From a virus, in the IMG/VR virus record IMGVR_UViG_3300047321_000238, positions 48,297-112,296 of that record: a stretch of 64,000 nt of DNA. The stretch is one strand, 5' to 3'. A model generated the notes under the pieces. It saw nothing but the letters and a program-made list of their open reading frames with translations. It searched no databases and was not told the origin of the DNA. The position numbers and the translations under genes are program-made. How positions within the stretch are numbered: position 1 is the stretch's first letter; each line of letters starts with the position of its first letter. Below, piece after piece: positions 7,750-62,824 of the stretch.

Positions 7750-8367
7750 ATGGAAAACATCAATAAGAATTTAGACTTCATGGACTTAACAGGAAACGTA
7801 AAGGATATGAGAATTATCAATAATACACAAGTTGGTATATTCTCTGTTGTGCAAAAGCATTTAACAGAATCATATTTTCACACATCAAGAGGATATATCA
7901 AAGTTGATCCTGTTGTATCTATAATATGTGTTGAACATGCTAAAGGTAAAATGGAACTATTAGCTGGAATCAAGATGTTAGAAACAGTCCAAATGATTAA
8001 CTATTTGATTGAAAAGAATTTCACAATTGCTGAACTTCCTACAGAAGTTGCAAAGATCAGAAACTACAGAGCTATTATAAGAACTGTAGAAAATAAGTTG
8101 AAGTTCGAAGCTAAACAATTATTAGTAGCTAAAGAAGCAGAGAATAAAGAAATAGAGAATAAAGAAATAGAAACTACTGTAGTTGTTGAACCAATCAAAA
8201 AACAACTTCCTAAGATGAAGACTCTTTCTGATATACCTTCATATAGAGAAGTTGCTTTAACAGTTGAAGAAAAGAAGATAATGCAAAGCATTGTTCACAC
8301 TAAAGATATAGCATCATCTTTCTTCAACAAAAGTAAAATAATCAATATCTTTAGCAAAACTAAATGA
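7750..8367 (+). CDS. hypothetical protein, 205 aa
   Basis: Track ORF with GGTGAAAGGTGG RBS. Internal ENKEIENKEIE repeat. Confidence 0.5.
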   Translation: MENINKNLDFMDLTGNVKDMRIINNTQVGIFSVVQKHLTESYFHTSRGYIKVDPVVSIICVEHAKGKMELLAGIKMLETVQMINYLIEKNFTIAELPTEVAKIRNYRAIIRTVENKLKFEAKQLLVAKEAENKEIENKEIETTVVVEPIKKQLPKMKTLSDIPSYREVALTVEEKKIMQSIVHTKDIASSFFNKSKIINIFSKTK

Positions 8368-8927: not shown

Positions 8928-11900
8928 TTGAACTTAGGCACTATGAGTGACAGGGATAATGGGGTACAAATAAAAATATATGATGAAAAGGATGGATACA
9001 AAATGATAAACACAAACACATTAACTAATGGAACTACTACAACAAACACAAATGAAGGGATGGATGTACAAATGGTAAATATCAATGTAACAAACGTAGC
9101 TAAAATAGTAGGGGTATCAAATGAAGAAGTTGTAGCATTAGCTATAAGATTAGGTTTAGAAGTTTCAACATCAGGTAAGAAAATAAACAATGTTATTTCT
9201 ACTGCAATTGTAGTTGAAGCTGTTAATGATTTAATAGCTAAAGATGAAGTTGCAGTTACAAATATAGTAAACAATAATGAAGGGATGGATGTAAAAATGG
9301 TTAACAAGATTAAAGAGGAAATAATGGAAATGGTTTATTCTGAAATGAACAAGGAAATAGCTAAACAAGAAATTAGAGACGAATACTTAAACAGAGTTGC
9401 AACTGTTGCAGCTATAGTTGATGAATCTAATAAAAAGTACAAAAGAAATACTTTAAGCAAAGTAGAATTAGTTGATTATGTAGTAGCTAACAATATCGAA
9501 GTTAATGACAAAGAATTAAGAGCACTATATTCTCAATTAAATGCTGCAAGAGATAAAGAAGCTAAATCAGAATTAGTTCACAAGATCATAGATCAAATGA
9601 ATGAAGGTAAATTCACTTATAAAATGTATGCAACTGCTAATAAGTACAAGCACCTTTTATCTGAAGATGATACAATTACTTTTGAATTAGCATTAGATGT
9701 AGCTCTTAATAAGGCTTCTATGAAGAACTACAAGAACCTATTAGCTGTTAAAAGATGGACTAAAGATATCACTGTTGCATTATTAAGAAGAGTTGTTTGC
9801 TATACTGGTAATCAATATGAAACAGAAGTAGCTCCTCAAATGTTCAGTTCTCTAATCAGAGCTTGTGATGTTACAGTTAAAGATGTTGCAGATTCTAAGA
9901 TGACTTTAAATGGATACACTACTGATGAGTTACTATTATTCTCATTCGATAAAGATGTATTAAAATTAACTGGAAATAATGACAGAGAAGTATTAGCTAA
10001 AAAAGATTACCTAGCTAAAGTATTCTATATCATTGCTGGATTATCTGAACAAAAGGTTTATATAGTTGAAAGAAAATCAGGTATTGCAGATGTTTATACT
10101 AATATCAACAAGATCAAATTAAATGAAGGTGAAGTTATAAAACAATATGAATTCTTAGGAATAACTCCATCTGGTTTAAGATCTGGAACTATGACATTAG
10201 CTATCACTAAAGAAATTCACGCTGATGGAACTGTTGTTGAAAGAGATAGAAGAGTTGAAATCATGGACAAAGCTTCTGATAATTCATTCAGCATTAACTT
10301 TATCGTAGGTGCGAATGAAAATGGACAAGCTATATTCAAAGATTGCGAATCAGTACTTGATGCATTTAAAGAAATGTCTAGAATGATGTTATGTGCTACA
10401 TCTTCAAAAGTGCTTGGTAAATTAGACTCTTATGTTGTATTAGATAATTTATCTTTTGGTGCAGGATATAATGCTAAAGATACTAACTCTCCTGCTAAAA
10501 TGGGTGAAGAAAATTTCGTAGATTGTCAAGATACTACTGATGGTTTAGGATTAATATCTAATGATATGTTAAAAGAAAATCTTCAAGCTATGAACATTCC
10601 ATGCTCAATTAAAGACTTATTAGGAATGACATTCCAAGCTAGAGGTGGCGGATTAAAGATTGCTGCAATGTCAAGATCTAAAGAAGCTATTAGACTAGAA
10701 GCAAAAGCATCATTAAGCAGAGGAGCATCTGTATTAAGAGCTGTATTCAAAGGACAAGAAGTTAAAGCTAAAGATCTAACTGATGAAATGTTAGATAACA
10801 TGCAAGGATTGTTTGATGGTAATGGTATGAAGTTAATCGATCACAATGCTGAAATCGAATTAGTAATGCTTAAGAAAGCTTATTCATCTGACTCTAAATT
10901 ATCTGATGTTGTTAATATTATAATGATGGTTAATGATGAACAAGCTACTACAGCATTATTATCTTCTAAAATAAAAAGTCAAATCTTAGACAAATTAAAA
11001 GACATTGGTATAAACGTAGATTACAATGCAGAAACTGATGAAGTTATCAGCGTAAAATGTGATCTTAAGAACTTAAAAAGAATCAACAATGACAGTCAAA
11101 CAGTTGAATGGATGTTTAGATCTCTTCCTGAAACTATGATTGCATTAGCTCCTGGTGTTCAAAAGACAAACTTTAATAGCTTATTGAAAGGTTTAGCTAA
11201 CCTAATCAACGAGCTTAATGTTGAAGTTAATTGTGAATATACTGTTGTTCAATCAGATCCAGCAGTTAGATTTGGTGTAAGAATAATAAAAGAAGATGAA
11301 GTATTCTGCCCAAGCTTAATAGAAGTAAATAAAGTATCAGGTGTTAGACATCCAGTATCAAACTTATTTGCTGTTTCTACATTCAAGACACTTACTCTAA
11401 AAACTATCTTAAAGAGAATTGATAAATTGAATGTATCTCTTGAAGTTAAAAACATGTTATTTGAATTCTACAAAGGAGTAGAAGGTTATGCTATAATACC
11501 AGCATCTCACTACTACATGGAAAAACATGATGGAATGGATTTCGATATCGATGCTATGCAATTTTTCTTAGATCAAGAAGTAGTAGCAATACTTGAAAAG
11601 ACTTCTGATATAGGAACAATAATTGATAGATCTATTGATGAAGAAATGGATTGTTCTATTAAGGAATCTAATGATGACCATGCTATCAAAGCTTTCTACA
11701 AAGATATTAACAAGAAAGATTTCCACCCTATAGCTTATGATGTAAAAGTATCTGAAGAAAAGATAGCACCAGTTAAAGCATTAAAAGGAATGGTTATGCC
11801 TAAGAAGATTAATGTTGCTTCTACTGAAGATAATCATTACAAGAAAAATGCAAATGGAAGATACTCATTAGACTTCTCTTCAGTTGCTATGATGGTATTA

Positions 11901-13946
11901 GATTATTTCTTAAACCCAATAGATTCAGTTGGTATCATGGCAACAAACTTCTATAATAATGCTAAAATACTTATGGCATTAAAATCAATTAACACTGAAA
12001 TCACTAAAGAAATGAAACAATTCATAGTTCAAGGAATGAGAACAATGTTTTCTTGTAGTGGTTTAAAGAAGTATTCTTCTCCAATCAGAAAGAACAATGA
12101 CGGAACAAAATTTAACTACAACGATAGAAATAAAGTTGTTCTATGCAAAGATGTTTGTCACAAAATAATCAAAACATTTATCAACTCTAAAGGAGATTTT
12201 GCAGATTGTATTCAATTCTTAATTGATGTATGTATTTGTAGTAGATATCCAGCTGAAACTTCTATTGATAGTGCTAAGAAAATGTATAAAGTTATAAACA
12301 TGTTTGCATTATCTGGTTGTATTAAAGCTATGGGTTGTAAAAATGCTGTTAAATTCTTAAACTTTGATCCATATATGTTAGATGACCAAGGTAACTCTAT
12401 TGAAGAAGTAGAAACTACAAAAGCATTCACTAACATTATTGACATCTTTAATGCAGCTCAACCAAAAAATGCTCTACAATATTCAACAAACAATTTCTTT
12501 GGATTAAAATTAATAAAAGAAGAAATGTCATGTGTTGGTTGGGAAGATGCTGATAAGGCTATGTTAGCTTTCAATACAGAGAAAAAAGTAGCAGGTATTA
12601 AAGATCCTACTTATCTATTAAAAGAAAGACTAATGAACTTTGCTAATTCAGTTATAGTATTTGCAGCTAAAGAATTAGAAGCATTTGTTAAATCAGATGA
12701 AGCTAATGCTATCAGAAAAGAATTCAAAGGTTTCTACAATTCAGAAGATAATTATTTCAGAGTTGATAAAGTAGTATCTAACATCGTTGGTACTTATATC
12801 ACATTAACTGAATCAATCAAAGCTTCAGAAAATGATGAAATAGATGATATAACTGCAAAGAAATATCTTAAGACAAATGCATTACAAGCTCTAATGAACA
12901 CAGCTAAACTTTCATTTAAAACAGCTAGAAAACCAGTATCTGATGAAGAAATTGGAGCAGGTGTGTTCTATTATATGATTACTTCTTTTGAAAAAGAAAA
13001 AGACAATGTATGTACTTCAGTTAACTCTAAGATTCTTGATATCTTCCAAAAAGAGATATTAGCATTCTTAAAATCTAAAGGATATGATATGCTTGCTGCT
13101 GAAGAAATATTATATGCTGTTAATCCTGTAACTAACAGACAAGTTAAATTAAATACAACAGAAGGATTAACATGTTCTGCATATAATGGTCATGGTACAA
13201 TTGAATTAGAAGATGGTTCAATCTATTTATTAACTCTAAAGAATAAGAAAGCATCTTTTGATAATGGTACTATTTCTATAGTAGATGATAAGTATGTTGT
13301 TGTTCAACAAAGAAAAACTTTAGAAGAAAATATACAATCAGGATTCTACTTTGGTGCTAAAATGGAAAAAGGAATATTCAACAAAGCTAATCTTCTAATG
13401 CAAGATATTAAAAAGACTACTGGTGATTACAATGAATACAAAGCAGCATTAGCAGAAATAAATCCTAATAACATTTTAGCTGAGACACAATATGATGAAA
13501 TTCTTTTCAGAACAAGAAGAGAAATGGACGAAAGAGGAAAATCATATACAGCTAATCTTTTAATTGGTATGAAAGATGATCAAGAATGTTTAATAGCTGA
13601 GTTATACCTTAATACAATCGTTGCTCAATTATTACAAACTGCTGAGTTATCTGAAAGCAATGTAAGATTATTCATGACTGAAAATAGTTGTACTGTTAAC
13701 ATTATTGAAGACTCTCTATTAGCTGAAGTTGAATCAGTTAGCACTCCTGACACTATAAGTGATTCATTTGGATTAGATGACTTAGAAGGATTCAGTAACT
13801 CAATAATAGATTATTCTTGTTATGATGTTACTCCAGTTCAAGAAAACTATGATGAAAAACAATTCGTTGCAATTACAACAAACTACGATATTCCTCAAGT
13901 TGACATGTGCAATGACGAAAACTATTTAAATGGTTTAACTCAATAA
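8928..13946 (+). CDS. giant protein, 1672 aa, with a DFDID (DxDxD) motif; candidate two-barrel RNA polymerase-like enzyme
   Basis: Single uninterrupted ORF, track start TTG at 8928 (alternative ATGs at 8943 and 9004). Motif HDGMDFDIDAMQ resembles the beta-prime NADFDGDQM Mg-binding loop. Direct repeat NEGMDV[QK]MVN near the N-terminus. Confidence 0.8.
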   Translation: MNLGTMSDRDNGVQIKIYDEKDGYKMINTNTLTNGTTTTNTNEGMDVQMVNINVTNVAKIVGVSNEEVVALAIRLGLEVSTSGKKINNVISTAIVVEAVNDLIAKDEVAVTNIVNNNEGMDVKMVNKIKEEIMEMVYSEMNKEIAKQEIRDEYLNRVATVAAIVDESNKKYKRNTLSKVELVDYVVANNIEVNDKELRALYSQLNAARDKEAKSELVHKIIDQMNEGKFTYKMYATANKYKHLLSEDDTITFELALDVALNKASMKNYKNLLAVKRWTKDITVALLRRVVCYTGNQYETEVAPQMFSSLIRACDVTVKDVADSKMTLNGYTTDELLLFSFDKDVLKLTGNNDREVLAKKDYLAKVFYIIAGLSEQKVYIVERKSGIADVYTNINKIKLNEGEVIKQYEFLGITPSGLRSGTMTLAITKEIHADGTVVERDRRVEIMDKASDNSFSINFIVGANENGQAIFKDCESVLDAFKEMSRMMLCATSSKVLGKLDSYVVLDNLSFGAGYNAKDTNSPAKMGEENFVDCQDTTDGLGLISNDMLKENLQAMNIPCSIKDLLGMTFQARGGGLKIAAMSRSKEAIRLEAKASLSRGASVLRAVFKGQEVKAKDLTDEMLDNMQGLFDGNGMKLIDHNAEIELVMLKKAYSSDSKLSDVVNIIMMVNDEQATTALLSSKIKSQILDKLKDIGINVDYNAETDEVISVKCDLKNLKRINNDSQTVEWMFRSLPETMIALAPGVQKTNFNSLLKGLANLINELNVEVNCEYTVVQSDPAVRFGVRIIKEDEVFCPSLIEVNKVSGVRHPVSNLFAVSTFKTLTLKTILKRIDKLNVSLEVKNMLFEFYKGVEGYAIIPASHYYMEKHDGMDFDIDAMQFFLDQEVVAILEKTSDIGTIIDRSIDEEMDCSIKESNDDHAIKAFYKDINKKDFHPIAYDVKVSEEKIAPVKALKGMVMPKKINVASTEDNHYKKNANGRYSLDFSSVAMMVLDYFLNPIDSVGIMATNFYNNAKILMALKSINTEITKEMKQFIVQGMRTMFSCSGLKKYSSPIRKNNDGTKFNYNDRNKVVLCKDVCHKIIKTFINSKGDFADCIQFLIDVCICSRYPAETSIDSAKKMYKVINMFALSGCIKAMGCKNAVKFLNFDPYMLDDQGNSIEEVETTKAFTNIIDIFNAAQPKNALQYSTNNFFGLKLIKEEMSCVGWEDADKAMLAFNTEKKVAGIKDPTYLLKERLMNFANSVIVFAAKELEAFVKSDEANAIRKEFKGFYNSEDNYFRVDKVVSNIVGTYITLTESIKASENDEIDDITAKKYLKTNALQALMNTAKLSFKTARKPVSDEEIGAGVFYYMITSFEKEKDNVCTSVNSKILDIFQKEILAFLKSKGYDMLAAEEILYAVNPVTNRQVKLNTTEGLTCSAYNGHGTIELEDGSIYLLTLKNKKASFDNGTISIVDDKYVVVQQRKTLEENIQSGFYFGAKMEKGIFNKANLLMQDIKKTTGDYNEYKAALAEINPNNILAETQYDEILFRTRREMDERGKSYTANLLIGMKDDQECLIAELYLNTIVAQLLQTAELSESNVRLFMTENSCTVNIIEDSLLAEVESVSTPDTISDSFGLDDLEGFSNSIIDYSCYDVTPVQENYDEKQFVAITTNYDIPQVDMCNDENYLNGLTQ

Positions 13947-43875: not shown

Positions 43876-44133
43876 GTGATGAAAATTAACACAATAGCAG
43901 AGATTGTCTTAAAATACAAAGAAAAGGAATATAAATTTAATTTTGATTTTGGGAGTTATATTCCAAGTGAAAATGCAGAATATTTGTTTGAAGATGGTAA
44001 TTATGCTTGTGATTGTAATAGGTCAATGTTTATAAAGAAATATTGTAATAAGGATTTTTTGGAATTACAATGCGGTGGAGATGAAATAGATTTAATAAGC
44101 TTCACAATAATACAAGAGGGGCAAAAAGAATAA
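43876..44133 (+). CDS. hypothetical protein, 85 aa
   Basis: Track ORF with AAAGGGGAA RBS. Confidence 0.45.
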   Translation: MMKINTIAEIVLKYKEKEYKFNFDFGSYIPSENAEYLFEDGNYACDCNRSMFIKKYCNKDFLELQCGGDEIDLISFTIIQEGQKE

Positions 44134-44186
44134 TGAGACGCAATACTAAAATATTACGCATAAAAAATAAGGAGGAAATTATTATG

Positions 44187-44861
44187 AAAATTATCGCATT
44201 TATAGGGCCTACAGGCACAGGAAAGAGTTCTATACAAAAAGGAGTACAAGAATACTACAGAGATAGAGCAAGCTATACAAATGACAGCATGAATGACTAC
44301 TTGCGAGTTAAAACAGTTGTTACAACTACAGACAGAGCAATAAGACATGGAGAAAAGAATGGAAAGGATTATCACTTCGTTATACCTGAAACATTTAAAA
44401 CTGGAGTAGTCAATGACCACTTTATTGAAGTAAAGACAGTTAAAGATTATGAAGAGAAAGAAATTCATTATGGATTAAAAAAAGATGCTTTAGGTATCTT
44501 AAGTAATAATAATGACATATTATTGTTATCACTAGATATTGGTGGATTAATTAATCTACAACAGTATCTACAAGAACAAGAATTAGATTCAAATGAAATA
44601 TTATTCCCAATCTTCATTGAAACATCTGCTGAAAGAAGAATGAGAAGATGTATGATTAGAGCTACAGGAGATACTGGACAAGGGCCTCATATAAAATGTC
44701 CAGATGAAACTGTATATAAGATTTGTGAAAGAATGATTCATGATGCAGAAGAAAACGAAGAAGCTAAAGATTATTGTATTTTAACAATTAAAAATGAAAT
44801 GGATTGTGATAAGCAAGAATGTGTTAGCTTTGTTATTAAGTTAATTCAAGGCATGCTTTAA
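44187..44861 (+). CDS. guanylate kinase-like P-loop nucleotide kinase
   Basis: Start after AAGGAGG. Walker A IGPTGTGKSS. TTTDRAIRHGEKNGKDYHFV matches the guanylate kinase TTRxxRxGExxGxDYxFV motif. Confidence 0.6.
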   Translation, partial: KIIAFIGPTGTGKSSIQKGVQEYYRDRASYTNDSMNDYLRVKTVVTTTDRAIRHGEKNGKDYHFVIPETFKTGVVNDHFIEVKTVKDYEEKEIHYGLKKDALGILSNNNDILLLSLDIGGLINLQQYLQEQELDSNEILFPIFIETSAERRMRRCMIRATGDTGQGPHIKCPDETVYKICERMIHDAEENEEAKDYCILTIKNEMDCDKQECVSFVIKLIQGML

Positions 44862-49797: not shown

Positions 49798-51228
49798 ATG
49801 TTAAAAGATATTAGAAAAAATCCAATTAAGTTAACTGATTGCTATAACTTATCACATGAGGAATTAAAATGTAATACAGACTTTGAAGTTTCTCATATGT
49901 ATAATAGAGCAGACGGAATGTTATTATATGGCTTTAAAGAAATTGCATTAGGTATTCTTAGTATAAAGATTACAGAAGAAATGGTTGAAGATGCAGCAGT
50001 TGATGCTGAAGAATTAAACTTAACTTTCCCTAAAGATTTATGGATGAGAGTAGTTACAGAATGTAGAGGATATGTTCCATTAGAAGTTCAATCAGTTCCA
50101 GAAGGAACATGGTGCCCTAAAGGAACTCCATTTGCTCAAGTAAGAAATACCGTAGAAGGTTTCGGAGAAATGGTTACATGGTTTGAAGGCGTGTTTATGA
50201 TGGCGTATTTCCCATCTACATGTGCAACTAGAGCATTTGAAATGAGAAACTATTTAGAAGAAAAGAAAGAACAATACGGATACGATGATAGCTTTCTATG
50301 GAGATTTCATAGTTTTGGATTCAGAGGACATAAAAGCTTGGAAGATGCGTACTTCGCAGGAACTGCATGGTCAACATTCTTATTAGGAACAGATGATTTC
50401 CATATAAGACAACACATGTCAGAAGATACTGTTATGGGAAGTATTGCAGCGTTAGCTCATAAAGTTACGCAACAATATGATAATGAATATGATTGTTTCA
50501 TTCGTTCAATAGATTATGCAGCTGCAAGCGGTAAGAATATCGTAGCTTTAGTTATAGATACTTACAATGCATATAGAGTTATTCAAGAATATGTGTTAAA
50601 ATTAGCTGAGTATGCTAAAGGAAAAGGAGTTCATATTGTATTTAGACCAGATAGTGGAGACATTTTTGGACAAGCAATGGCTATATATACAAGAGTTTCA
50701 ACTGCAGGTTATAAAAATGTAAGTGTAATAATTGGAGAAGGTATGAGTTTTAATAATGCTAAATCAATGGATAAAAAATTTGAGTTAATGGGAGTGCCAT
50801 TAACATTTATTGCTTATGGTATAGGAGCAGGATTCTATAAAGATATAGAAAGAGATACTTTAGGATGGGCAATGAAGACTGGTTATTCTAATGGAGCTCC
50901 AAGAATGAAAGTAGTTAAGTCGGATCCATTTAAGCAATCAATACCTGGGATTGTAGATTTAATGTACGATGAAGATGATTTAATGACAGTATATATAGAA
51001 AAAGAAGATAATGCTGCTGATTCAATATATGAATGTATATATAGATATGATCTTGATCAAAATACAACACCTTCTATGAAAGACTTATCTTATATTCCTG
51101 CACAAGCTATTAAGGATAGAGCATACAATACTACAGGATATAGAGTTGGAGAAAAAATACAAGAAAGAATAATCATATCTAATGAAATTAAAGAACTTAT
51201 AAATGTAATAACAAAAAAATATGAATAA
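49798..51228 (+). CDS. nadV: nicotinamide phosphoribosyltransferase (NadV/NAMPT family)
   Basis: Blocks EVQSVPEGTWCPKGTPF, FHSFGFRGHKS...GTDDFH, FRPDSGD, IIGEGM, IAYGIGAG align with the NAMPT conserved regions (EIKAVPEG, HDFGYRG, RPDSG, IQGDG, IAFGSGGG). Confidence 0.8.
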   Translation: MLKDIRKNPIKLTDCYNLSHEELKCNTDFEVSHMYNRADGMLLYGFKEIALGILSIKITEEMVEDAAVDAEELNLTFPKDLWMRVVTECRGYVPLEVQSVPEGTWCPKGTPFAQVRNTVEGFGEMVTWFEGVFMMAYFPSTCATRAFEMRNYLEEKKEQYGYDDSFLWRFHSFGFRGHKSLEDAYFAGTAWSTFLLGTDDFHIRQHMSEDTVMGSIAALAHKVTQQYDNEYDCFIRSIDYAAASGKNIVALVIDTYNAYRVIQEYVLKLAEYAKGKGVHIVFRPDSGDIFGQAMAIYTRVSTAGYKNVSVIIGEGMSFNNAKSMDKKFELMGVPLTFIAYGIGAGFYKDIERDTLGWAMKTGYSNGAPRMKVVKSDPFKQSIPGIVDLMYDEDDLMTVYIEKEDNAADSIYECIYRYDLDQNTTPSMKDLSYIPAQAIKDRAYNTTGYRVGEKIQERIIISNEIKELINVITKKYE

Positions 51229-51949
51229 AACAGGAGATAAAACAATGGACATATATTTAATCTGTGAAAATAACAAAGACGTTGAAGATTACTTAACGGT
51301 TGGTAAAGAATATAAAGTAATAAGCATGTTTCCTAAAACTGGACTAATTCTAGTAAAAAGCGATACAGGATTAGTTGAACATGTAAAAGAAAGTAGATTC
51401 AAAGTAAGAAAGGATGATAGTATGAAAACATGTTATAAACCATTTATTATCGAGATAAACGTAGAAGGTAAAGAAGCTTCAGGACATATATCATATGTAG
51501 ATGAAAATTTACCAACAATGGATTCAATGAATGAATTCTTAAATATACCATCACCATTTGGAATAGATTTAAAATTAACAAAAACAGGTAGAGGTACTAG
51601 AGTATTCTTCTTTGATAAAGATGGATCAGATAAAGCTTTAGCTAACAATATGGAAGCTTTAGAGTTTGCTTATTTAATTAAGAAGACAATAGTATTGTAT
51701 AATATATTGCTACAAAACAAAGAATATGTAGTAAAGACAGTTTATGATGTACAATTTCAACCTGAAGGAAAACTATATACATTCAGAAGTACTGATAGCC
51801 CAATAATTGGACAACTTGTAGTATGCAATAGTTGTAATGGTAAAGATTATGGTATGGTAGTAGCAATTAAAGAAGAATCAGAACATGAATATAATTCAAG
51901 AGCATATTGTACAACATCTAATATTCTGTCACGAAGAGCACCATTTTAA
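51221..51949 (+). CDS. hypothetical protein, 242 aa
   Basis: Track ORF. Confidence 0.5.
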   Translation: MNKTGDKTMDIYLICENNKDVEDYLTVGKEYKVISMFPKTGLILVKSDTGLVEHVKESRFKVRKDDSMKTCYKPFIIEINVEGKEASGHISYVDENLPTMDSMNEFLNIPSPFGIDLKLTKTGRGTRVFFFDKDGSDKALANNMEALEFAYLIKKTIVLYNILLQNKEYVVKTVYDVQFQPEGKLYTFRSTDSPIIGQLVVCNSCNGKDYGMVVAIKEESEHEYNSRAYCTTSNILSRRAPF

Positions 51950-52675: not shown

Positions 52676-53224
52676 ATGACAAAAGAAGAGTTTAAAGCGA
52701 TGATAATAGAAAACTATATAAAAGGGAAAAAAATAGTTTTTGTTAACATTGGAACAGAAAAATATATAGGAGATAGTTTTGCACCATTATTAGGTTCTAT
52801 GCTACAATGTAAACTAGATATTATTAAGATATATGGAACATTAGATGAAACAATTAATGGCAGAAACATGATAGAAGAATTAGAACATATTAATAAGAAA
52901 TATAAGAATGATTTTATAATAGGAGTTGACGCAGCGTTTTCTGATGATTACGATAATTGTAATGAAGATTTTATAATACGTAAAGAATCTTTTAAGCCAG
53001 GCGAAGGAGTTGGTAAAAACCATCTACCACACATTGGAAATGCATGTATTAAATTTTGTATCAGAAATGACGAAGAAGATCATTTTGATTCATTAAAAAA
53101 ACCAAACATCAAAGAAATATATAATAGAACAAAGAAAGCAGCAGACTTCATATTTGAAATAGATGAAGAACTAAAAGCGTTGGAGGTGCAATATGAAGAC
53201 AGAGATAGTCATTACACTGAGTAA
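52676..53224 (+). CDS. YyaC-like putative sporulation protease (DUF1256/GPR-like)
   Basis: VFVNIGTEKYIGDSFAPLLGSML parallels the YyaC signature CIGTDRSTGDSLGPLVG. Confidence 0.55.
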   Translation: MTKEEFKAMIIENYIKGKKIVFVNIGTEKYIGDSFAPLLGSMLQCKLDIIKIYGTLDETINGRNMIEELEHINKKYKNDFIIGVDAAFSDDYDNCNEDFIIRKESFKPGEGVGKNHLPHIGNACIKFCIRNDEEDHFDSLKKPNIKEIYNRTKKAADFIFEIDEELKALEVQYEDRDSHYTE

Positions 53225-53396
53225 AGATGAATATGATCAAAAAATAGCAGAGCTTGAAGCATTAATAGCTGATCTTGATGTGCAGTATAATTTTATATTA
53301 AATCACACAAACGATAGTGAAATCATACATGCTTTAATAAATATCAAGAAGGCTTTTATTAAGATGCGTGAAGAATTAATTATTTATGAAATTTAA
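53193..53396 (+). CDS. hypothetical protein, 67 aa
   Basis: Track ORF. Overlaps the previous gene by 32 nt. Confidence 0.4.
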   Translation: MKTEIVITLSKDEYDQKIAELEALIADLDVQYNFILNHTNDSEIIHALINIKKAFIKMREELIIYEI

Positions 53397-53763
53397 AGTA
53401 ATAGTAGCTGGAGGTAGACTTTTTGATGACTATGAGCTATTAAAAGAATGTTTGGACATGTTACTTACTTTATACGTAATGTACGGGTATGAAATAGTTA
53501 TAGTATCTGGCACAGCAAAAGGTGCAGATACACTAGGTGAAAGATATGCTAAAGAAAGAGGCTACGAAATTATACGAATGCCTGCAGACTGGAGTATCGG
53601 TAAAAGTGCTGGTTATAGACGCAATGCGGATATGGCTGACATAGCTGATGCTTCAGTTTGTTTTTGGTCAGGTTCTAAAGGAACGGGCCATATGATAGAT
53701 TTATCAAAAAGTAAAGGATTAGATTATAGAATAATAGAGTACGAGGAGGAAGAGTATGAATAG
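53386..53763 (+). CDS. SLOG/DUF2493 (DprA-like Rossmann) family protein
   Basis: IVSGTAKGADTLGERYA...ADWSIGKSAGYRRNADMADIADASVCFWSGSKGTGHMI fits the SLOG nucleotide-binding pattern. Confidence 0.5.
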   Translation: MKFKVIVAGGRLFDDYELLKECLDMLLTLYVMYGYEIVIVSGTAKGADTLGERYAKERGYEIIRMPADWSIGKSAGYRRNADMADIADASVCFWSGSKGTGHMIDLSKSKGLDYRIIEYEEEEYE

Positions 53764-55501: not shown

Positions 55502-56068
55502 TTGAGAGAATGTAATATATGCAAAAAGGAATTAAAAGAATCAGAGTACCAATTATGTGAAGGTTGTAAGACTGTTGGCAATGAATTTTTTAAAGTAAAA
55601 GGATCTGTAAGTAAACCTACAAAGAAATTAAATAGAGAAGAATATTACTTAGGAATAGCTAAAGCTGTTTCAGTAGGTGGTACATGCCTTAGACGTAACT
55701 ATGGTGCCATTATAGTAAACAACGATGAGATTATATCTACTGGTTATACAGGAGCTCCTAGAGGTAACGCTAACTGTTGTGACTTAGGAGTTTGTGAAAG
55801 GCAAAGATTAAAGATTGCTCCTGGAGAAAGATATGAATTATGCAAATCAGTTCATGCTGAACAAAATGCAATAATATCAGCATCTAGACAAGAAATGCTT
55901 GGAGCTACATTATATCTATATGGATATGATAAAGAAAAGGATTGTGAAATACTTGTAGCTCAACCGTGTGATTTATGTAGTAGAATGATTATAAATGCTG
56001 GAATATCTAAAGTAGTAGCAGCAAATTATATATGGTATCCATCAGCTAATAGAAAGTATATAGAATAG
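55502..56068 (+). CDS. dCMP/cytidine deaminase-family protein with N-terminal Zn-ribbon
   Basis: TTG start after AAGGGGGAA. HAEQNAI and PCDLC zinc-ligand motifs. Confidence 0.75.
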   Translation: MRECNICKKELKESEYQLCEGCKTVGNEFFKVKGSVSKPTKKLNREEYYLGIAKAVSVGGTCLRRNYGAIIVNNDEIISTGYTGAPRGNANCCDLGVCERQRLKIAPGERYELCKSVHAEQNAIISASRQEMLGATLYLYGYDKEKDCEILVAQPCDLCSRMIINAGISKVVAANYIWYPSANRKYIE

Positions 56069-56845: not shown

Positions 56846-57535
56846 ATGATATTGAATAAAATAAATGATTTTTTTAAAGGATGGACAAAGCTAGATTTTG
56901 CTTGGCTATTAATAGCTAATGCAATCATGTTAGGATTATCTATCAGAAATGGTGATACAGTAGTATCTATGATATGTGCTGTAACAGGAATAGTTAGTGT
57001 TATATTTGCAAGTAAGCAAATGACAGCTAATTATGTAGTAGGACTTATAAATGTAGCGTTATATGCTTATCTTTCATATCAAGCCAAATTATATGGAGAT
57101 TTTCAATTAAATGCTTTCTTCTATGTACCAATGCAATTCATAGGATATTATATGTGGAATAAAGCTAAAAACAAATCATCAGAACATAAAGTTGAAGCTA
57201 AAAGACTAACTGGAGAGCAAGCTATATTTATATCAGTAGGAACAATAGGAACTATATTGGTATACGCTAAAATATTAGATATGCTTAGAGGAAATATAAC
57301 TTTAATCGATTCAGCCTCTACAGTACTATCAGTGATAGCTATGATATTAATGGTTAAACAATATACTGAACAATGGTATATGTGGGTTCTTGTTAATATA
57401 GTATCTATAGTAATGTGGGTAGTATCTTTATCACAAGGCACAGGAGATTTGGCTACATTATTAATGTGGGTAGTTTTCTTAATTAATTCTATATTTGGAT
57501 TAGTTAATTGGAGAAAGGCTAGTAAGAAGGCTTAA
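56846..57535 (+). CDS. pnuC: nicotinamide riboside transporter PnuC
   Basis: Seven TM helices. LSVIAMILMVKQYTEQWYMWVLVNIVSIV aligns closely with PnuC (LSIVAMILMTRKYVENWLLWVIINVISVV). GLINVALYAYL matches GLINVTLFG. Confidence 0.8.
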   Translation: MILNKINDFFKGWTKLDFAWLLIANAIMLGLSIRNGDTVVSMICAVTGIVSVIFASKQMTANYVVGLINVALYAYLSYQAKLYGDFQLNAFFYVPMQFIGYYMWNKAKNKSSEHKVEAKRLTGEQAIFISVGTIGTILVYAKILDMLRGNITLIDSASTVLSVIAMILMVKQYTEQWYMWVLVNIVSIVMWVVSLSQGTGDLATLLMWVVFLINSIFGLVNWRKASKKA

Positions 57536-57782
57536 ATGATAATTATTAAGATTATAGTAGCTGTCTTTATTGTTTCTTGGATATTAGCTAAGGATTCTGT
57601 AGAGAAATAGGAAGAAGGTTAAATTATGATCAAATTAATAATTGTAATATTTATTGTATTGTATGTAGTAAGTATTATGAATGAATAAGATGGAGCTCTA
57701 ATAGGCTCCTACTTTATATGAGCTATTAATAATATAATGGTTGATATAAAGTATTACGTAATAAAGAAAGGGTGGAGTAATT

Positions 57783-58673: not shown

Positions 58674-59552
58674 ATGAAAGTTCAAAGTTTAAGTATTAGT
58701 GTACCAGCAAAGTGTACAAATAATTGCTATTTTTGTGTAGCACACATGCACAGGGAGGACTATTGTAATCAAATAGAAAACAATACAAGATTTATCGATT
58801 TATATACTAAGGATTATAAAAAGAGATTAATGTTTGCAAGAGACAATGGATGCAATACAGTTATGTTAACTGGAAATGGTGAACCATTATTAAATAAAAG
58901 ATTCTTAGAAAGATTTGCATTATGGAATGAATCATTGCCAAAGCCTTTTGTATGGATTGAAATTCAAACTTCAGGAACATTGTTAGATGATGAATATCTA
59001 AGATACTTAAGAAATACAGTAGGAGTTAATACTATTAGTTTATCATTATCGAATATTTTTGATTCAGATAAAAATGCAGAATATAATAGAACTCAAGCAG
59101 GAGTTAAAATTGATATCGATAAATTATGTGATGAAATAAAGAAATATGATTTCAATTTAAGATTATCACTTAATATGACAGACTATTATAATGACACTGA
59201 AATTAAGAGTATTTTTGAAAGAGCAAAACAATTAGGAGCAGATCAAATCACATTTAGAAAGCTATATACTAGTAGTATAAATGGAGAGAATGAACAAAAT
59301 AAGTGGATTGAAAAGCATGCTTGTGCGTCTTCTAAGTATGAAGAATTAACACAGTATGTTAAAAAGAATAGTACACCTTTAGAAGTATTACCTTTTGGAG
59401 CAATCAAGTATTCATTAGGCTCTTTTGCAGTAGTAGTTGATGATGATTCAATGAGTACTCAAATAAAAGATGATACAGTTAAATATTTAATACTTAGAGA
59501 AAATTGCAAATTATATTCAAAATGGGAAGATAAAAATTCATTAATATTCTAG
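58674..59552 (+). CDS. radical SAM superfamily enzyme
   Basis: CTNNCYFC (CxxxCxxC) cluster at residues 14-21. GNGEPLL glycine-rich SAM-binding motif. No SPASM-type C-terminal Cys cluster. Confidence 0.65.
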   Translation: MKVQSLSISVPAKCTNNCYFCVAHMHREDYCNQIENNTRFIDLYTKDYKKRLMFARDNGCNTVMLTGNGEPLLNKRFLERFALWNESLPKPFVWIEIQTSGTLLDDEYLRYLRNTVGVNTISLSLSNIFDSDKNAEYNRTQAGVKIDIDKLCDEIKKYDFNLRLSLNMTDYYNDTEIKSIFERAKQLGADQITFRKLYTSSINGENEQNKWIEKHACASSKYEELTQYVKKNSTPLEVLPFGAIKYSLGSFAVVVDDDSMSTQIKDDTVKYLILRENCKLYSKWEDKNSLIF

Positions 59553-60177: not shown

Positions 60178-60198
60178 ATAATCTTGAGGGGGATTAAA

Positions 60199-61257
60199 AT
60201 GAATAAAATATCAGACATGCCAAAGAAAGGTGTATGGTTTGCTAAAGCATTACCACCACATAGAGGTCATTTAAGTACAATATTACAAGCTGCTACACAA
60301 GTACAACAATTAGATGTAATTGTATCAGAGCATGAAGAAGGAAATGGTAAACTGTGTAGAAATGTCGGAATACCATATATGCCAGGAGCAAAAAGAGTAC
60401 AATGGCTTAGTCAGGAATTAATGGACATGCCTCATATTACCGTTAAGTTACTTAATGAAAATAATATGCCTGTATATCCTAATGGATGGGATATGTGGAC
60501 TCAAGAATTACAAAAAGTTGCAGGAGAAAAAATAGATATGTTTTTCTGCGGTAAAAAAGATATAGATGTATATGGACCAAAATTAAAGAGTTATTTTCCA
60601 GGAGTTAAAGTTACAGCGTATGATACAGATACTTGTTACTTTAATATATCAGCTACAGAGATCAGAAGTAATCCAATTAAGCATTGGGACTATATATTAG
60701 GACCAGCAAGACCATTCTTTGCTAAGAAAATATTAATAGCTGGAACTGAAAGCACAGGTAAGACTACTTTAACTAAAACTTTAGCTAAGATGTATCATAC
60801 ATCATGGAGTGAAGAAGTAGGAAGATATTATGCAACGCAATATCTAGGAGGTAATGAAAATTACTTTACTGATGAAGACTTTACAAGAATAGCTCATTTG
60901 CAAGTTGAACAAGATCATCAAGCATTAAGAAACTGTAATAGAGTTTGTTTCTTTGATACAGACGCTACAGCAACAGATTACTTCAGTCAATTATATATGG
61001 GACATAGCAATAGCATAGTTAGAAGCTATATAGATCCTGATAAGTATGACATAGTGTTCATGTTGAAGCCTGATGTTGAATGGGTAGATGATGGCATGAG
61101 ATTAAATGGATCACAAGAGCAAAGAATTAAACTTCATAATAAATTAAAAGATATGTATGATAATTTAGGATTTAAAGTAGTTGAAGTAGGTGGAACATAC
61201 CAAGAAAGACTTAAATTTATATTATCAAAAATAGATGAAATGATTGGGGGAAAATAA
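60199..61257 (+). CDS. nadR: NadR-like bifunctional NMN adenylyltransferase / ribosylnicotinamide kinase (no HTH domain)
   Basis: HxGH-type motif PPHRGH in the N-terminal nucleotidyltransferase half. Walker A GTESTGKTTL in the C-terminal kinase half, as in NadR GGESSGKS. Start after GAGGGGGA. Confidence 0.75.
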   Translation: MNKISDMPKKGVWFAKALPPHRGHLSTILQAATQVQQLDVIVSEHEEGNGKLCRNVGIPYMPGAKRVQWLSQELMDMPHITVKLLNENNMPVYPNGWDMWTQELQKVAGEKIDMFFCGKKDIDVYGPKLKSYFPGVKVTAYDTDTCYFNISATEIRSNPIKHWDYILGPARPFFAKKILIAGTESTGKTTLTKTLAKMYHTSWSEEVGRYYATQYLGGNENYFTDEDFTRIAHLQVEQDHQALRNCNRVCFFDTDATATDYFSQLYMGHSNSIVRSYIDPDKYDIVFMLKPDVEWVDDGMRLNGSQEQRIKLHNKLKDMYDNLGFKVVEVGGTYQERLKFILSKIDEMIGGK

Positions 61258-61836
61258 ATGAGAAAGCTATTAAGCGTAGATAAACAAACGGATAATAAAT
61301 TCTTAAACATGTTTGTAGCAAACTATGAAGAAGACGGTGAAGAGTCTAAATACTTTATTGCATCAAGAAAAAAGAATGCAGAAGATTTAGATTGTATGAC
61401 TGGTAAGATGGTAGCTGATGCAGTAATAATCGTTCCTGTATATACTAATGGAGATATATTATTTATTAAGCAATTTAGAAAACCTATAAATGATTATATA
61501 TATGAATTTCCAGCAGGATTAATCGATGCAGGTGAAACTAGTAAACAAGCTGCAATAAGAGAGCTTCATGAAGAAACTGGATTAAGTGTAGTAAGTGCTA
61601 GAGAATTAATCAAGCCTACGTATACATCAGTTGGAATGTCAGATGAAGCTGTAGGAATATATATAGCTGAAGTTCAAGGAGAACTATCTCAAGAATATCA
61701 AGAAAAAAGCGAGGATATAAATTTTGAAATAGTAAAAATAGATGACTTAGCAAAGTTCATTAAAGAAAACAAAGTAGCAATGCAAGCATCAATACTTTCT
61801 TTATTCTTATATAGCATAGAAAAAGGAGAATATTAA
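61258..61836 (+). CDS. Nudix hydrolase (ADP-ribose pyrophosphatase-like)
   Basis: Nudix box GLIDAGETSKQAAIRELHEETGL. Start overlaps the NadR stop (TAAATG). Confidence 0.75.
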   Translation: MRKLLSVDKQTDNKFLNMFVANYEEDGEESKYFIASRKKNAEDLDCMTGKMVADAVIIVPVYTNGDILFIKQFRKPINDYIYEFPAGLIDAGETSKQAAIRELHEETGLSVVSARELIKPTYTSVGMSDEAVGIYIAEVQGELSQEYQEKSEDINFEIVKIDDLAKFIKENKVAMQASILSLFLYSIEKGEY

Positions 61837-62042
61837 TGGATATAGAAAATATTCCTGATGATATTTTTTATACTGAATATGAGAGAAGAAAATCAGAAAG
61901 AAAATCAAACCAAGAAGCCAAAGAAAAACAAGAAGAGCGACAAAGAATTAGATGGTTAGAATCTAATGGAGGAACGTGTGGTAATGATCAATGTGCTACA
62001 TCTTATTGTAGAATAAATTGTTATGGTTGTGATGGTTTTTAA
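61836..62042 (+). CDS. small protein with C-terminal Cys cluster, 68 aa
   Basis: Track ORF. CGNDQC...CRINCYGC. Confidence 0.45.
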   Translation: MDIENIPDDIFYTEYERRKSERKSNQEAKEKQEERQRIRWLESNGGTCGNDQCATSYCRINCYGCDGF

Positions 62043-62060
62043 TTTAAGGAGTGATATACA

Positions 62061-62366
62061 ATGTCATCTAATGTAATAAAATTTAATTTAAAAAAAGAAG
62101 TAGAATTGGATAAAGAATTTCAACCAATAAATGAAGAAAAAATATCTCTTTATGCTAATTGTGATGCAGTATCTTCATGGGTAGCCTATGTTGAAAATTA
62201 TGAACAAGCAAAAGAACTTATTTTACCAGAAAATATAGATGATTTATTTAATAGTTCATTAAGTTGTGATGAATTAGAAATATTTGTTGCAGTTTTAAAT
62301 AATCATTCAGAATATTATTTTTTTAATGAAGTATTTGATTATGAAGATTACAAAAATAAGGAGTGA
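62061..62366 (+). CDS. hypothetical acidic protein, 101 aa
   Basis: Track ORF with AAGGAGTGA RBS. Confidence 0.5.
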   Translation: MSSNVIKFNLKKEVELDKEFQPINEEKISLYANCDAVSSWVAYVENYEQAKELILPENIDDLFNSSLSCDELEIFVAVLNNHSEYYFFNEVFDYEDYKNKE

Positions 62367-62371: not shown

Positions 62372-62824
62372 ATGGAAATAAAAGAAGTGAAAGGCAATTT
62401 ATTAGAAGCAAGTGAAGATCTAATATGTCATCAAGTAAACTGCCAAGGTAGAATGGGTAGTGGAGTAGCTTTAGCTATTAAAGAAAAGTATCCACAAGTA
62501 TATAAGCAATATAAAACTATGTGTAAATTAACGAATCCTTTAGGAGAAGCACAAGCAATCCAAGTATCAGAAAAACAAATAGTAATTAATATGTATGCAC
62601 AAGAATTCTATGGATATGATAAAAAGCAATATACTAGTTACGAAGCGTTTGAGAAGTGTTGTAAGAAGATTCGAGATATTGCAATTCAATTTAACTTAAG
62701 TGTAGCAATGCCATATAAGATTGGTAGTGTACGCGGAGGAGCTGAATGGGACGAGATATACAAGATATTAGTAAAGTATTTTGGACCACTAAGTAAAGTA
62801 AATTTAACGCTGTATAAATTATAA
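62372..62824 (+). CDS. macrodomain protein (DarG/TARG1-like)
   Basis: ICHQVNCQGRMGSGVALAIKEKYP parallels DarG VNTVNCVGVMGKGIALQFKRRYP and TARG1 CISEDCRMGAGIA. Confidence 0.65.
   Translation: MEIKEVKGNLLEASEDLICHQVNCQGRMGSGVALAIKEKYPQVYKQYKTMCKLTNPLGEAQAIQVSEKQIVINMYAQEFYGYDKKQYTSYEAFEKCCKKIRDIAIQFNLSVAMPYKIGSVRGGAEWDEIYKILVKYFGPLSKVNLTLYKL

Follow-up and report, generated by a model that had tools for sequence, protein, structure and literature searches.

What does a stand-alone macrodomain act upon when its gene lies in a phage genome among genes for NAD+ metabolism? The original prediction for this gene, made from the sequence alone, was of an enzyme closer to DarG and TARG1 than to MacroD, which might strip ADP-ribose (ADPR) from phage DNA or process ADPR-derived defence signals. 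Here, we have analyzed the gene within a 64,000-nucleotide stretch of viral DNA (the window), and the results partly support that interpretation: the fold and the class stand, the link to ADPR-derived signals is plausible, and the identity with DarG and TARG1 does not stand.

A single-domain macrodomain of phage origin

The reading frame and the motif quoted in the prediction were found as described (Table 1). The protein matched Pfam PF01661 over residues 20 to 132 (E = 1.3e-8; 35.3 bits against a curated cutoff of 22) and PHROG 335 (E = 1e-39), and its AlphaFold2 model (mean pLDDT, 90.8; pTM, 0.86) has the macro fold; both the profile score and the model place it in the macro superfamily. 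One domain fills the entire protein, without a fusion partner, and the term "stand-alone" was therefore apt. An identical protein occurs in JGI/Logan, where the longest contig that carries it is 247,883 bp.

The putative ribosome-binding site of the gene overlaps the 3' end of the preceding open reading frame, whose stop codon at positions 62364 to 62366 leaves 5 nt between the two; this overlap suggests that the two genes may be translationally coupled. A promoter scan gave nothing above shuffled expectation. Nearby open reading frames matched phage-only families at 592 to 860 bits and were approximately 60% identical to Bacillus phage proteins, matches that support a phage origin for this DNA. 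The macrodomain itself matched 667 phage records by tblastn at E <= 1e-5, and a nucleotide search of the 60- to 64-kb region against the phage collection gave zero matches.

Table 1. Coordinates of the features discussed, numbered from the first nucleotide of the window
Feature	Position	Strand	Description or basis
Nampt-family phosphoribosyltransferase, divergent	49798..51228	+	phrog_448 1e-59
PnuC-like nicotinamide riboside transporter	56846..57535	+	Pfam NMN_transporter 2.6e-46; phrog_1880 3e-64
Terminator-like hairpin	57692-57709		After PnuC-like gene; terminator scan
NadR-like bifunctional NMN adenylyltransferase/ribosylnicotinamide kinase	60184..61257	+	No HTH domain; NARP3-type; abuts Nudix gene
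Nudix hydrolase, ADP-ribose/ADP-sugar pyrophosphatase type	61258..61836	+	535 nt upstream of macrodomain gene; Pfam NUDIX 5.8e-17
Two small ORFs, 68 aa (61836-62042) and 101 aa (62061-62366)	61836..62366	+	Tightly packed between Nudix and macrodomain genes
GGAG, putative Shine-Dalgarno/ribosome-binding site	62360..62363	+	About 8 nt 5' of macrodomain ATG; sequence reading
Macrodomain CDS, 150 aa, ATG start	62372..62824	+	Adpp family (Gln-type); ALC1-like/TARG1/DarG/Poa1p class
Phosphate/ADPR-binding loop ICHQVNCQGRMGSGVALAIKEKYP	62423..62494	+	Residues 18-41, with His20, Asn23 and MGSG loop; alignments
Gln77 codon (CAA)	62600..62602	+	At catalytic-Lys position; alignments
Loop after Gln77, EFYGYDKKQ	62603..62629	+	Residues 78-86, with Lys84 and Lys85; MAFFT alignments
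Second ADPR-binding loop, GGAEW	62735..62749	+	Residues 122-126; alignments

Glutamine in place of the catalytic lysine

The nearest structural and sequence neighbours of the macrodomain belong to the ALC1-like class (TARG1, DarG, Poa1p and BT1257/SCO6735) and not to the MacroD type, as had been predicted. The narrower assignment to DarG/TARG1 did not survive alignment, since the catalytic lysine of those enzymes (K80 in DarG, K84 in TARG1) is replaced by Gln77, which stands in the local context YAQEFY and also aligns with the catalytic K78 of AdfM. In an alignment of 269 homologues, all have glutamine at this position, and lysine appears in the column only in the DarG and TARG1 reference sequences. 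Of 274 aligned sequences, 265 have His20 and all but one (273) have Asn23. Asn23 is equivalent to the active-site asparagine of DarG (N22 in the Thermus aquaticus protein) and AdfM (N23), the position of His20 is Asn or Thr in DarG and AdfM and corresponds to H23 of Poa1p, and Gly122 aligns with Asp125 of TARG1. The loop that follows Gln77 is 5 residues longer than that of DarG and TARG1, where residues 81 to 85 (GYDKK) stand opposite gaps; these residues align with BT1257, and the longer loop is also seen in phage Adpp proteins (Q..YGYDGK).

The resemblance to the DarG macrodomain (T. aquaticus, PDB 5M31/5M3E; Mycobacterium tuberculosis, 5M3I) lies in the GNLLEA N terminus, the VNC.G.MG.G.A loop, the Asn22 equivalent and the GG..W loop. 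DarG differs in having Lys80, Asn19 where the macrodomain has His20, a PTKKHW motif that is absent here, the shorter loop, and both a C-terminal DarT-binding domain and a neighbouring darT gene. The DarG antitoxin profile (NF048014/PADLOC DarG), which has a cutoff of 250 bits, gave the protein 72.4 bits and matched it only through profile positions 1 to 147 of 338; the protein therefore lacks the DarT-binding domain, and the catalytic lysine of the DarG FPTKKHW motif is Gln77. No darT gene was found beside the macrodomain gene, whose neighbours encode NadR, Nudix and small proteins without a significant family match. The locus is part of a phage genome and not a toxin-antitoxin locus. TARG1 was rejected on the replacement of its Lys84/Asp125 catalytic dyad by Gln77/Gly122. 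AdfM (PhiKZ gp104; Cell Rep 2026, PMC13309987) is likewise a stand-alone jumbo-phage macrodomain, shares the structural class and has the conserved asparagine; however, it retains the catalytic Lys78 and a DarG-like FPTK.NW motif, BLASTP aligned the macrodomain with PhiKZ-like AdfM over only the N-terminal 44 residues (9 to 52), and the AdfM family was rejected as well.

A single-sequence search of the PDB returned DarG as the top matches (1e-11); with the family profile, the best match was BT1257 (62 bits) and not DarG. Like the macrodomain, SCO6735 and BT1257 (PDB 5E3B and 2FG1/2AFC) have glutamine at the catalytic-lysine position, that of BT1257 (NMIGQH) aligning with Gln77, and a longer, lysine-bearing "mobile loop," which is the hallmark of their subclass (PMC9411070). 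They differ in being bacterial chromosomal proteins with 25 to 28% identity to the macrodomain in structure-based alignments, and BT1257 has D and W where the macrodomain has its C24/M28 motif. SCO6735 has been shown to act on thymidine-ADPR (T-ADPr) DNA and on Glu/Asp-ADPr proteins. The closest solved structures come from a subclass for which removal of ADP-ribose from DNA and protein has been shown, and this counts against the Adpp role that is proposed below.

These likenesses raise the possibility, which we consider unlikely and which amounts to the original prediction with another chemistry, that the macrodomain is a stand-alone glycohydrolase directed against DarT, removing thymidine ADP-ribose from DarT2-modified phage single-stranded DNA by Gln-dependent, water-mediated chemistry, as in SCO6735, and not by the lysine chemistry of DarG and AdfM. 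Gln77 sits where SCO6735 has Gln85, a residue that T-ADPr hydrolysis requires; the longer loop carries Lys84 and Lys85, and SCO6735 uses loop lysines for DNA binding. SCO6735 also erases DarT marks more rapidly than either DarG or TARG1, and it has been argued that T-ADPr reversal is a unifying activity of the ALC1-like class (PMC9411070). AdfM provides a precedent for a stand-alone phage macrodomain that counters DarTG2 (PMC13309987), and in phage FADO the homologue of our macrodomain is encoded two genes from a NADAR protein, a member of the other DNA-ADPr eraser family. The macrodomain is basic (pI 8.8), as might be expected under this explanation; however, pI varies from 4.8 to 8.8 in the family (4.8 for L005, 4.9 for JG004), and net charge is therefore uninformative as a proxy for DNA binding. 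Moreover, AdfM, the phage macrodomain proven to counter DarT, is of the Lys type and constitutes a family of its own, to whose type of hidden Markov model (HMM) the macrodomain fits about 54 bits worse than to the Adpp HMM, and the nearest relatives of the macrodomain are encoded within operons for NAD+ synthesis and not beside genes of DNA replication or repair. A DNA activity for the phage Gln-type family would be proposed by analogy with SCO6735 and BT1257, which fall outside the phage Gln-type clade in a neighbor-joining tree.

Membership of the Adpp family

Adpp is an ADPR-1''-phosphate (ADPR-1P) phosphatase that counters NAD+ cleavage by RES-domain proteins (Sorek laboratory preprint, Osterman et al., bioRxiv 10.64898/2026.01.28.702374); the Adpp of Vibrio phage Gary converts ADPR-1P to ADPR and is needed for NARP1 to overcome aRES. 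This preprint is the one source for the function, and phosphatase activity and aRES rescue were shown in it for phage Gary only. An HMM of published NARP1-associated Adpp proteins (11 sequences, all from Table S1 of the preprint) gave the macrodomain 117 bits (E 4e-35), compared with 63 bits from a Lys-type HMM of DarG and AdfM. When the profile of the macrodomain family was compared with Gary Adpp by hhalign, the two matched over their full length (probability, 99.1%; E 4e-19), and the neighbor-joining tree placed the macrodomain in a Gln-type clade with all of the Adpp sequences, separate from DarG and AdfM. Both Gary Adpp and the macrodomain are stand-alone phage proteins of approximately 150 to 160 residues that share the signature H-[QV]-x-N-C...M-G-S-G, N-x-[YH]-x-Q..Y-G, G-G-x-x-W, and His20, Asn23, Gln77 and Gly122/Gly123, which vary little or not at all among family members, are present in Gary Adpp as well. 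In pairwise comparison, Gary Adpp scored 46.6 bits and the M. tuberculosis DarG macrodomain scored higher, at 62.8 bits; the 25% identity to Gary Adpp is a point against an Adpp role.

Yeast Poa1p, an ADPR-1''-phosphate phosphatase (PDB 6LFQ), is more distant, with 20 to 24% identity to the macrodomain, Ser/Thr in place of Gln after the central strand and a long insertion; the Poa1p sequence in the alignment and tree was confirmed in part by the single-sequence PDB search.

Judged by these sequence comparisons, the protein is a new member of the Adpp family and not a Lys-type DarG/AdfM enzyme, and since that family has recently been described, it is a fairly ordinary one. Its conservation also bears on whether the protein might be a noncatalytic reader or sponge that binds and sequesters ADPR-based signals. 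Ligand binding without catalysis is known for macrodomains, one example being that of ThsA, which senses His-ADPR, and phages commonly encode sponges for NAD-derived signals. Nevertheless, H20, N23, Q77 and both glycine loops are strictly conserved over hundreds of homologues, the equivalent glutamine of SCO6735 is required for catalysis (PMC9411070), and Gary Adpp loses function when mutated and turns over its substrate as a purified enzyme (10.64898/2026.01.28.702374). We regard a purely binding role as very improbable.

Genomic context of the relatives

The nearest relatives, with 40 to 57% identity to the macrodomain, lie in phage NARP1 NAD+-rebuilding operons (Adps-Namat-macrodomain), that is, in the position of Adpp. 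The arrangement Adps-Namat-macrodomain-NadE was found in 77 of 80 IMG/VR loci with macrodomains of 40 to 49% identity and in all 7 metagenome contigs with homologues of 49 to 56% identity. These counts are not independent events, given that a small number of related gut-phage lineages supply many of the 80 loci, whose macrodomains form about 8 clusters at 70% identity. The gene labelled "NAPRT" in these operons encodes Namat, since it scored 361 bits with 9W5X and 158 bits with Nampt. In Vibrio phage 184E37.1, the macrodomain (39.9% identity) lies in the order Adps-macrodomain-Namat, as in phage Gary. No NAD genes lie near the relatives in Bacillus phages FADO, MrDarsey, PBS1 and SPbetaL8, and a tie to NAD+ rebuilding is therefore not universal in the family.

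The NAD+ island of the window

Whereas Adpp is encoded beside Adps and Namat, the macrodomain in the window follows NadR and Nudix genes in an island with the order Nampt-like enzyme, PnuC, NadR, ADPR-pyrophosphatase Nudix and macrodomain, to which a SLOG/YAcAr protein also belongs. Support for an Adpp role comes from the common orientation of the NadR, Nudix and macrodomain genes and from a terminator scan that gave no terminator-like site from 57.7 to 63.6 kb. The best NCBIfam matches of the Nudix protein, to NudE and ADPR diphosphatase, were below cutoff, and its top approximately 20 PDB matches were all ADPR or ADP-sugar pyrophosphatases. The NadR-like protein matched phrog_3462 (2.1e-93) and NF005988 (237.9 bits; profile positions 57 to 408 of 411); PnuC is the partner of NadR in NARP3 (PMC13464706). 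The Nampt-family gene, 11 kb upstream of the macrodomain gene, is ambiguous between Nampt and Namat on its scores (Nampt 7yqo, 92.7 bits; Namat 9w5x, 87.3 bits; Namat HMM, 88 bits).

Adps and Namat were encoded within two genes of the macrodomain in the nearest relatives, and this context was not found in the window. A tblastn search of the window and an HMM of 58 Adps sequences run over all of its six-frame open reading frames gave nothing below E 0.1; this absence of Adps counts against an Adpp role, as do the distance and the ambiguous identity of the Nampt-family gene. A 242-residue open reading frame (51221 to 51949) located 3' of the Nampt-like gene was rejected as a divergent Adps (hhalign probability, 0.9%; no PDB match). 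The two small open reading frames upstream of the macrodomain gene had no significant Pfam or PHROG family matches, and a Logan contig that extends the locus downstream by approximately 2.5 kb contained only small open reading frames without family matches. A pattern scan of IMG/VR for NadR with the macrodomain gave no relatives with the NadR-Nudix-macrodomain adjacency; among annotated phages with NadR, only CBB was also in the list of macrodomain matches, and its two genes lie 150 kb apart.

Proposed function

The most likely function of the macrodomain, as judged from its sequence and setting, is to hydrolyze soluble derivatives of ADPR and so release ADPR, and the suggestion in the original prediction that it might process ADPR-derived defence signals comes close to the best-supported reading, given its Adpp-type relatives. 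From the fold, class, active-site residues, family and neighbourhoods described above, we infer the substrate, the hand-off to Nudix and the counter-defence role. We postulate that the protein is a catalytically competent, Gln-type Adpp-family macrodomain in an NAD+ counter-defence island and that its likeliest substrate is ADPR-1''-phosphate; the probability of this reading is, in our estimate, approximately one-half. The macrodomain would bind ADP-ribose within a substrate whose distal ribose is modified, most probably ADPR-1''-phosphate from phosphorolytic NAD+ cleavage by an aRES-type RES-domain protein, and would hydrolyze the 1'' substituent to give free ADPR. The ADPR would then pass to the neighbouring Nudix pyrophosphatase to yield AMP and ribose-5-phosphate, and the island's own Nampt-like enzyme, PnuC transporter and NadR-like NMN adenylyltransferase/nicotinamide riboside kinase would restore NAD+. 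The macrodomain would thereby provide the clean-up and feeder step of an island that counters NAD+ depletion. NARP2 by itself already overcomes aRES (10.64898/2026.01.28.702374), so a phage with Nampt and an NMN adenylyltransferase would not strictly need Adpp.

It is doubtful, but conceivable, that the macrodomain is instead a broader or different ADPR-derivative hydrolase that releases free ADPR for the Nudix enzyme. Its activities could include deacetylation of O-acetyl-ADP-ribose, removal of mono-ADP-ribose from protein Glu/Asp residues, or cleavage of Thoeris-type signals (1''-2'/1''-3' gcADPR and His-ADPR). The class is promiscuous, with TARG1 and SCO6735 acting on both proteins and DNA (PMC9411070). 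In the prediction of Iyer et al., soluble signals derived from ADPR are the main targets of phage Macro, NADAR, SLOG and Nudix proteins, which tend to co-occur; a SLOG/YAcAr protein and a Nudix protein are encoded in this island. RyDEP, another accessory enzyme embedded in NARP1, turns cADPR signals into ADPR. The JGI label of the protein is O-acetyl-ADP-ribose deacetylase; however, this name is an automatic COG label, the candidate substrates are suggested by class analogy, and the family's only biochemical datum is ADPR-1P phosphatase activity (10.64898/2026.01.28.702374).

A further proposal, improbable as a whole, is that an Adpp-type macrodomain has been recruited to an NAD+ rescue pathway that lacks NARP1 ("NARP2/3 with associated phosphatase"). 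ADPR-1P, or another 1''-modified ADPR, would be converted to ADPR by the macrodomain and to AMP and ribose-5-phosphate by Nudix; host PRPP synthesis, the Nampt-like enzyme and NadR could then follow, so that both halves of NAD+ would be recycled. Under this proposal, the Gln-type enzyme might double as an eraser of DarT2 thymidine-ADPr marks on phage DNA, like SCO6735.

Significance

Phage macrodomains are now gaining specific counter-defence roles: AdfM against DarTG2 and Adpp against RES-type NAD+ phosphorolysis. A DarG-like motif alone is insufficient to distinguish the AdfM type from the Adpp type; clean separation of the families is provided by Gln or Lys at the catalytic-lysine position, by a switch between His and Asn in the first loop and by the length of the loop that follows the catalytic position. 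These separators should be useful for annotating phage macrodomains that are labelled merely "phosphatase" or "macro domain protein." If the macrodomain described here works with Nudix and NadR/Nampt, and not with Adps and Namat, then the idea of accessory enzymes for NAD+ reconstitution would reach beyond NARP1, and this cooperation would constitute a simple, testable module in a Bacillota jumbo phage.

Results

The original prediction of a stand-alone macrodomain was confirmed. The gene begins with ATG and encodes 150 aa, its GGAG ribosome-binding site overlaps the 3' end of the preceding ORF, which terminates 5 nt upstream of the start codon, and the domain fills the entire protein; the quoted motif, ICHQVNCQGRMGSGVALAIKEKYP, comprises residues 18 to 41. 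The protein is a genuine macrodomain: it matched Pfam PF01661 (35.3 bits; cutoff, 22) and PHROG 335 ("phosphatase"; E 1e-39), and its AlphaFold2 model (69 homologues as input) had a mean pLDDT of 90.8 and a pTM of 0.86. The source is a large phage, probably with a Bacillota host; an identical protein is present in JGI/Logan records (longest contig, 247,883 bp), ORFs around the gene match phage-only PHROGs (592 to 860 bits) and are ~60% identical to Bacillus phage proteins, and the G+C content of the window is ~29%. Auxiliary genes are also present in the window (see the table), among them a DUF1256/YyaC-like (spore-protease-like) gene that hints at a spore-forming Bacillota host. The first 20 kb contains a very large ORF and several ORFs of 270 to 370 aa, all without a PHROG match.

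The catalytic Lys, whose absence would by the original prediction's own account have contradicted a DarG/TARG1-type enzyme, is missing on alignment. Its position (K80 in DarG, K84 in TARG1, and K78 in the phage anti-DarT macrodomain AdfM) is occupied by Gln77, within YAQEFY rather than the PTKKHW of DarG; phmmer, MAFFT with 269 homologues, and L-INS-i with reference sequences were concordant. Gln77 was invariant in the alignment of homologues, and in a 274-sequence alignment the column held Gln 271 times and Lys 3 times, solely in the DarG and TARG1 references. His20, kept in 265 of the 274 sequences, is replaced by Asn, Thr, or Ile in DarG and AdfM; TARG1 Asp125 corresponds to Gly122, and the loop after Gln77, which bears K84/K85, exceeds that of DarG and TARG1 by five residues. 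The DarG NCBIfam model covered the protein only with profile positions 1 to 147 of 338 (72 bits; cutoff, 250), no DarT-binding domain was found, and there was no darT among the neighbors. The narrow DarG/TARG1 identity was therefore rejected on these enzyme-defining residues.

A Gln at the catalytic-Lys site (Q85, essential) and a Lys-bearing "mobile loop" five residues longer are hallmarks of the SCO6735/BT1257 subclass (PMC9411070). Single-sequence searches placed DarG macrodomains first among PDB matches (1.2e-11 and 9.6e-9) and BT1257 next (1.6e-8), and both DarG models, from NCBIfam and PADLOC, align to the protein through their macro portion. With a family profile in place of the single sequence, BT1257 was the top PDB match (62 bits), followed by Mycobacterium tuberculosis DarG (52), TARG1 (45), Taq DarG (43), Poa1p (39), and SCO6735 (38). 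A scored comparison of the query with these enzymes was likewise headed by BT1257 (2AFC; 21.5), above M. tuberculosis DarG (18.5), T. africanus DarG (17.3), Poa1p (17.0), and TARG1 (16.7), and Foldseek TM-scores were consistent with it (BT1257, 0.87; SCO6735, 0.85; DarG, 0.79 to 0.82; Poa1p, 0.78 to 0.82; TARG1, 0.75 to 0.78).

The family comprises 8,694 cluster representatives (50% identity) at an E value of ≤1e-3, and 667 phage genome records matched by tblastn (E ≤ 1e-5); Bacillus phage FADO was the best sequenced-phage match (49.7% identity). The gene neighborhoods of these relatives proved decisive. In all seven metagenome contigs with the closest homologues (49 to 56% identity), isochorismatase/PncA, PRPS-like, and Nampt-like genes precede the macrodomain gene and an NAD synthase gene follows it; the arrangement was identical in 77 of 80 IMG/VR loci (40 to 49% identity). 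The Nampt-like product scored 361 bits against 9W5X/9W5W, the SPbetaL1 Namat structures (PMC12774641), versus 158 bits against true Nampt. This gene thus encodes Namat, the PRPS-like gene accordingly encodes Adps, and the loci are NARP1 (NAD+-rebuilding) operons in which a macrodomain gene is embedded. The order in Vibrio phage 184E37.1 is Adps-macro-Namat (macrodomain, 39.9% identity).

The five-gene cluster (PncA-like isochorismatase/nicotinamidase, Adps, Namat, macrodomain, and NadE) is conserved in metagenomic phages of ~100 to 230 kb (compared loci L003 to L006, most of L008 to L086, and L093 to L096; e.g., L005:3049-7245). In one of these metagenomic phage contigs, L093, an IS605 OrfB/TnpB (Cas12f-like) gene (6656-7786) lies directly downstream of the NARP1-macro-NadE genes. 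NAD genes are not found near the homologues in FADO, MrDarsey, PBS1, and SPbetaL8; in FADO (L001, 5192-6468), a gene for a COG3236/NADAR protein, the other ADP-ribose eraser family, lies two genes upstream of the homologue, which adjoins RecJ, (p)ppGpp synthetase, and exonuclease genes.

In the window, the macrodomain gene sits outside any NARP1 operon, and no Adps was detected across the 64 kb. It ends a tight same-strand run that starts with a NadR-like gene, and the 57.7- to 63.6-kb stretch contained no terminator-like site. The PnuC-like, SLOG/YAcAr, and Nampt-like genes belong to this block as well, farther upstream. Searches of Pfam, PHROGs, and the PDB yielded no homologue of the 242-aa ORF that follows the Nampt-like gene, and this ORF was ruled out as Adps.

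Features of the NAD+ island and other genes in the window
Feature	Position	Strand	Remarks
ORF, TTG start	8928-13946	+	1,672 aa
Guanylate kinase	44133-44861	+	
Divergent Nampt-family enzyme	49798-51228	+	476 aa; near-equal scores to bacterial Nampt and phage Namat structures
Nampt-family gene and 242-aa ORF	49798-51949	+	ORF start overlaps Nampt-family gene end
DUF1256/YyaC-like protein	52676-53224	+	
SLOG/YAcAr protein	53386-53763	+	125 aa; PF10686 on Logan copy; phrog_289, 3e-30
dCMP deaminase	55502-56068	+	
PnuC-like transporter	56846-57535	+	Same block, upstream of run
Radical-SAM gene	58674-59552		Inside 2.6-kb gap between PnuC-like and NadR-like genes
NadR-like NMNAT/NR kinase	60184-61257	+	No HTH; NARP3 type (PMC13464706)
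Nudix	61258-61836	+	~20 top PDB matches all ADP-ribose or ADP-sugar pyrophosphatases
Two small ORFs	61836-62366	+	No assigned family
Macrodomain	62372-62824	+	

Discussion

The relatives' loci match exactly the system of Osterman et al. (bioRxiv 10.64898/2026.01.28.702374), in which aRES (RES-domain) defense cleaves NAD+ phosphorolytically to nicotinamide and ADPR-1''-phosphate, a product that NARP1 cannot use. The macrodomain protein Adpp, found in ~15% of NARP1 phages, restores NAD+ reconstitution ("NARP1-AP"), and purified Vibrio phage Gary Adpp converts ADPR-1P to ADPR (same preprint). Table S1 of that study includes JG004, PAK_P2, VCM, RYC, 1.063.O, and PH357; these or close kin were in our tblastn lists. 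The preprint makes no mention of PncA or NadE; their presence in the cluster suggests a possible deamidated branch of NARP1-AP, running from nicotinic acid through NaAD to NAD+.

An HMM built only from 11 Table S1 Adpp sequences, each ≤40% identical to the query, scored it at 117 bits (E 4e-35), versus 63 bits for an HMM of DarG and AdfM-like sequences, and the query-family profile aligned with Gary Adpp over its full length (hhalign probability, 99.1%; E 4e-19). In a neighbor-joining tree, which is indicative only, the query lay beside NARP1-embedded macrodomains and all Adpp sequences grouped in a single Gln-type clade; DarG, PhiKZ-like AdfM, and Bas90_0030 formed a Lys-type clade apart from it. 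The two phage families are cleanly distinguished by sequence signatures: H-[QV]-x-N-C...M-x-S-G, N-x-[YFH]-x-Q..Y-G, and P-[YF]-K-[IM]-G...G-G-x-x-W for the Adpp type and T-V-N-x-V-G-V-M-G, F-P-T-K-x-x-W-R, and P-P-L-G-x-x-N-G-G-L for the DarG/AdfM type. Pairwise, the query is only 25% identical to Gary Adpp (46.6 bits, below the 62.8 bits for M. tuberculosis DarG), and its connection to this tested enzyme runs through intermediate family members. It is a divergent addition to a known phage macrodomain family, whose function was proposed and tested in 2026 (bioRxiv 10.64898/2026.01.28.702374). A Lys-type, DarG/AdfM-like stand-alone macrodomain with an FPTKKHW motif, annotated only as "phosphatase," is encoded by Escherichia phage SkaterBoy_Bas90 (L090, 580-1020), a non-jumbo E. 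coli phage of 77 kb; AdfM-type enzymes therefore seem to reach beyond nucleus-forming jumbo phages.

From the fold, residues, family, and neighborhoods observed here, we infer that the protein is a hydrolase of the Adpp type that acts on soluble ADP-ribose modified at the 1'' position, the likeliest substrate being ADPR-1''-phosphate, and that it has a role in counterdefense; this is the best-supported reading, with a probability of about one-half. The distal ribose and its substituent would be held by His20, Asn23, two Gly-rich loops, and Gln77; the ADPR freed may be handed to the adjacent Nudix enzyme, yielding AMP and ribose-5-P, and NAD+ would be rebuilt through Nampt/NadR/PnuC. The main rival, DNA de-ADP-ribosylation as originally proposed, would require SCO6735-like chemistry and is unlikely. 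In its favor, SCO6735, with the same Gln and a long Lys-bearing loop, clears DarT thymidine-ADPr faster than DarG does (PMC9411070), and phage stand-alone macrodomains can act as anti-DarTG2 factors, as demonstrated in 2026 in a different, Lys-type family (AdfM). Action on other ADPR derivatives (OAADPr, gcADPR, His-ADPR, or protein MAR) is similarly doubtful, and a noncatalytic binder is very improbable.

PnuC and an HTH-less NadR-like enzyme are the two components of the NARP3 pathway (PMC13464706). With the Nampt-like gene also present, the phage seems to draw on both NARP2-like and NARP3-like routes, whose parts share a single 13-kb island with two predicted ADPR-processing enzymes. The presence of SLOG, Nudix, and macrodomain genes in one island fits the Macro/SLOG/Nudix co-occurrence of Iyer et al. 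2022. No recurrence of the NadR-Nudix-macro arrangement was found in an IMG/VR pattern scan or in annotated NadR-bearing phages. What stands out, in this single occurrence, is that an Adpp-type macrodomain gene sits beside genes for an ADPR pyrophosphatase and for NadR, with no NARP1 in the window; the combination might reflect a variant way of recycling NAD+.
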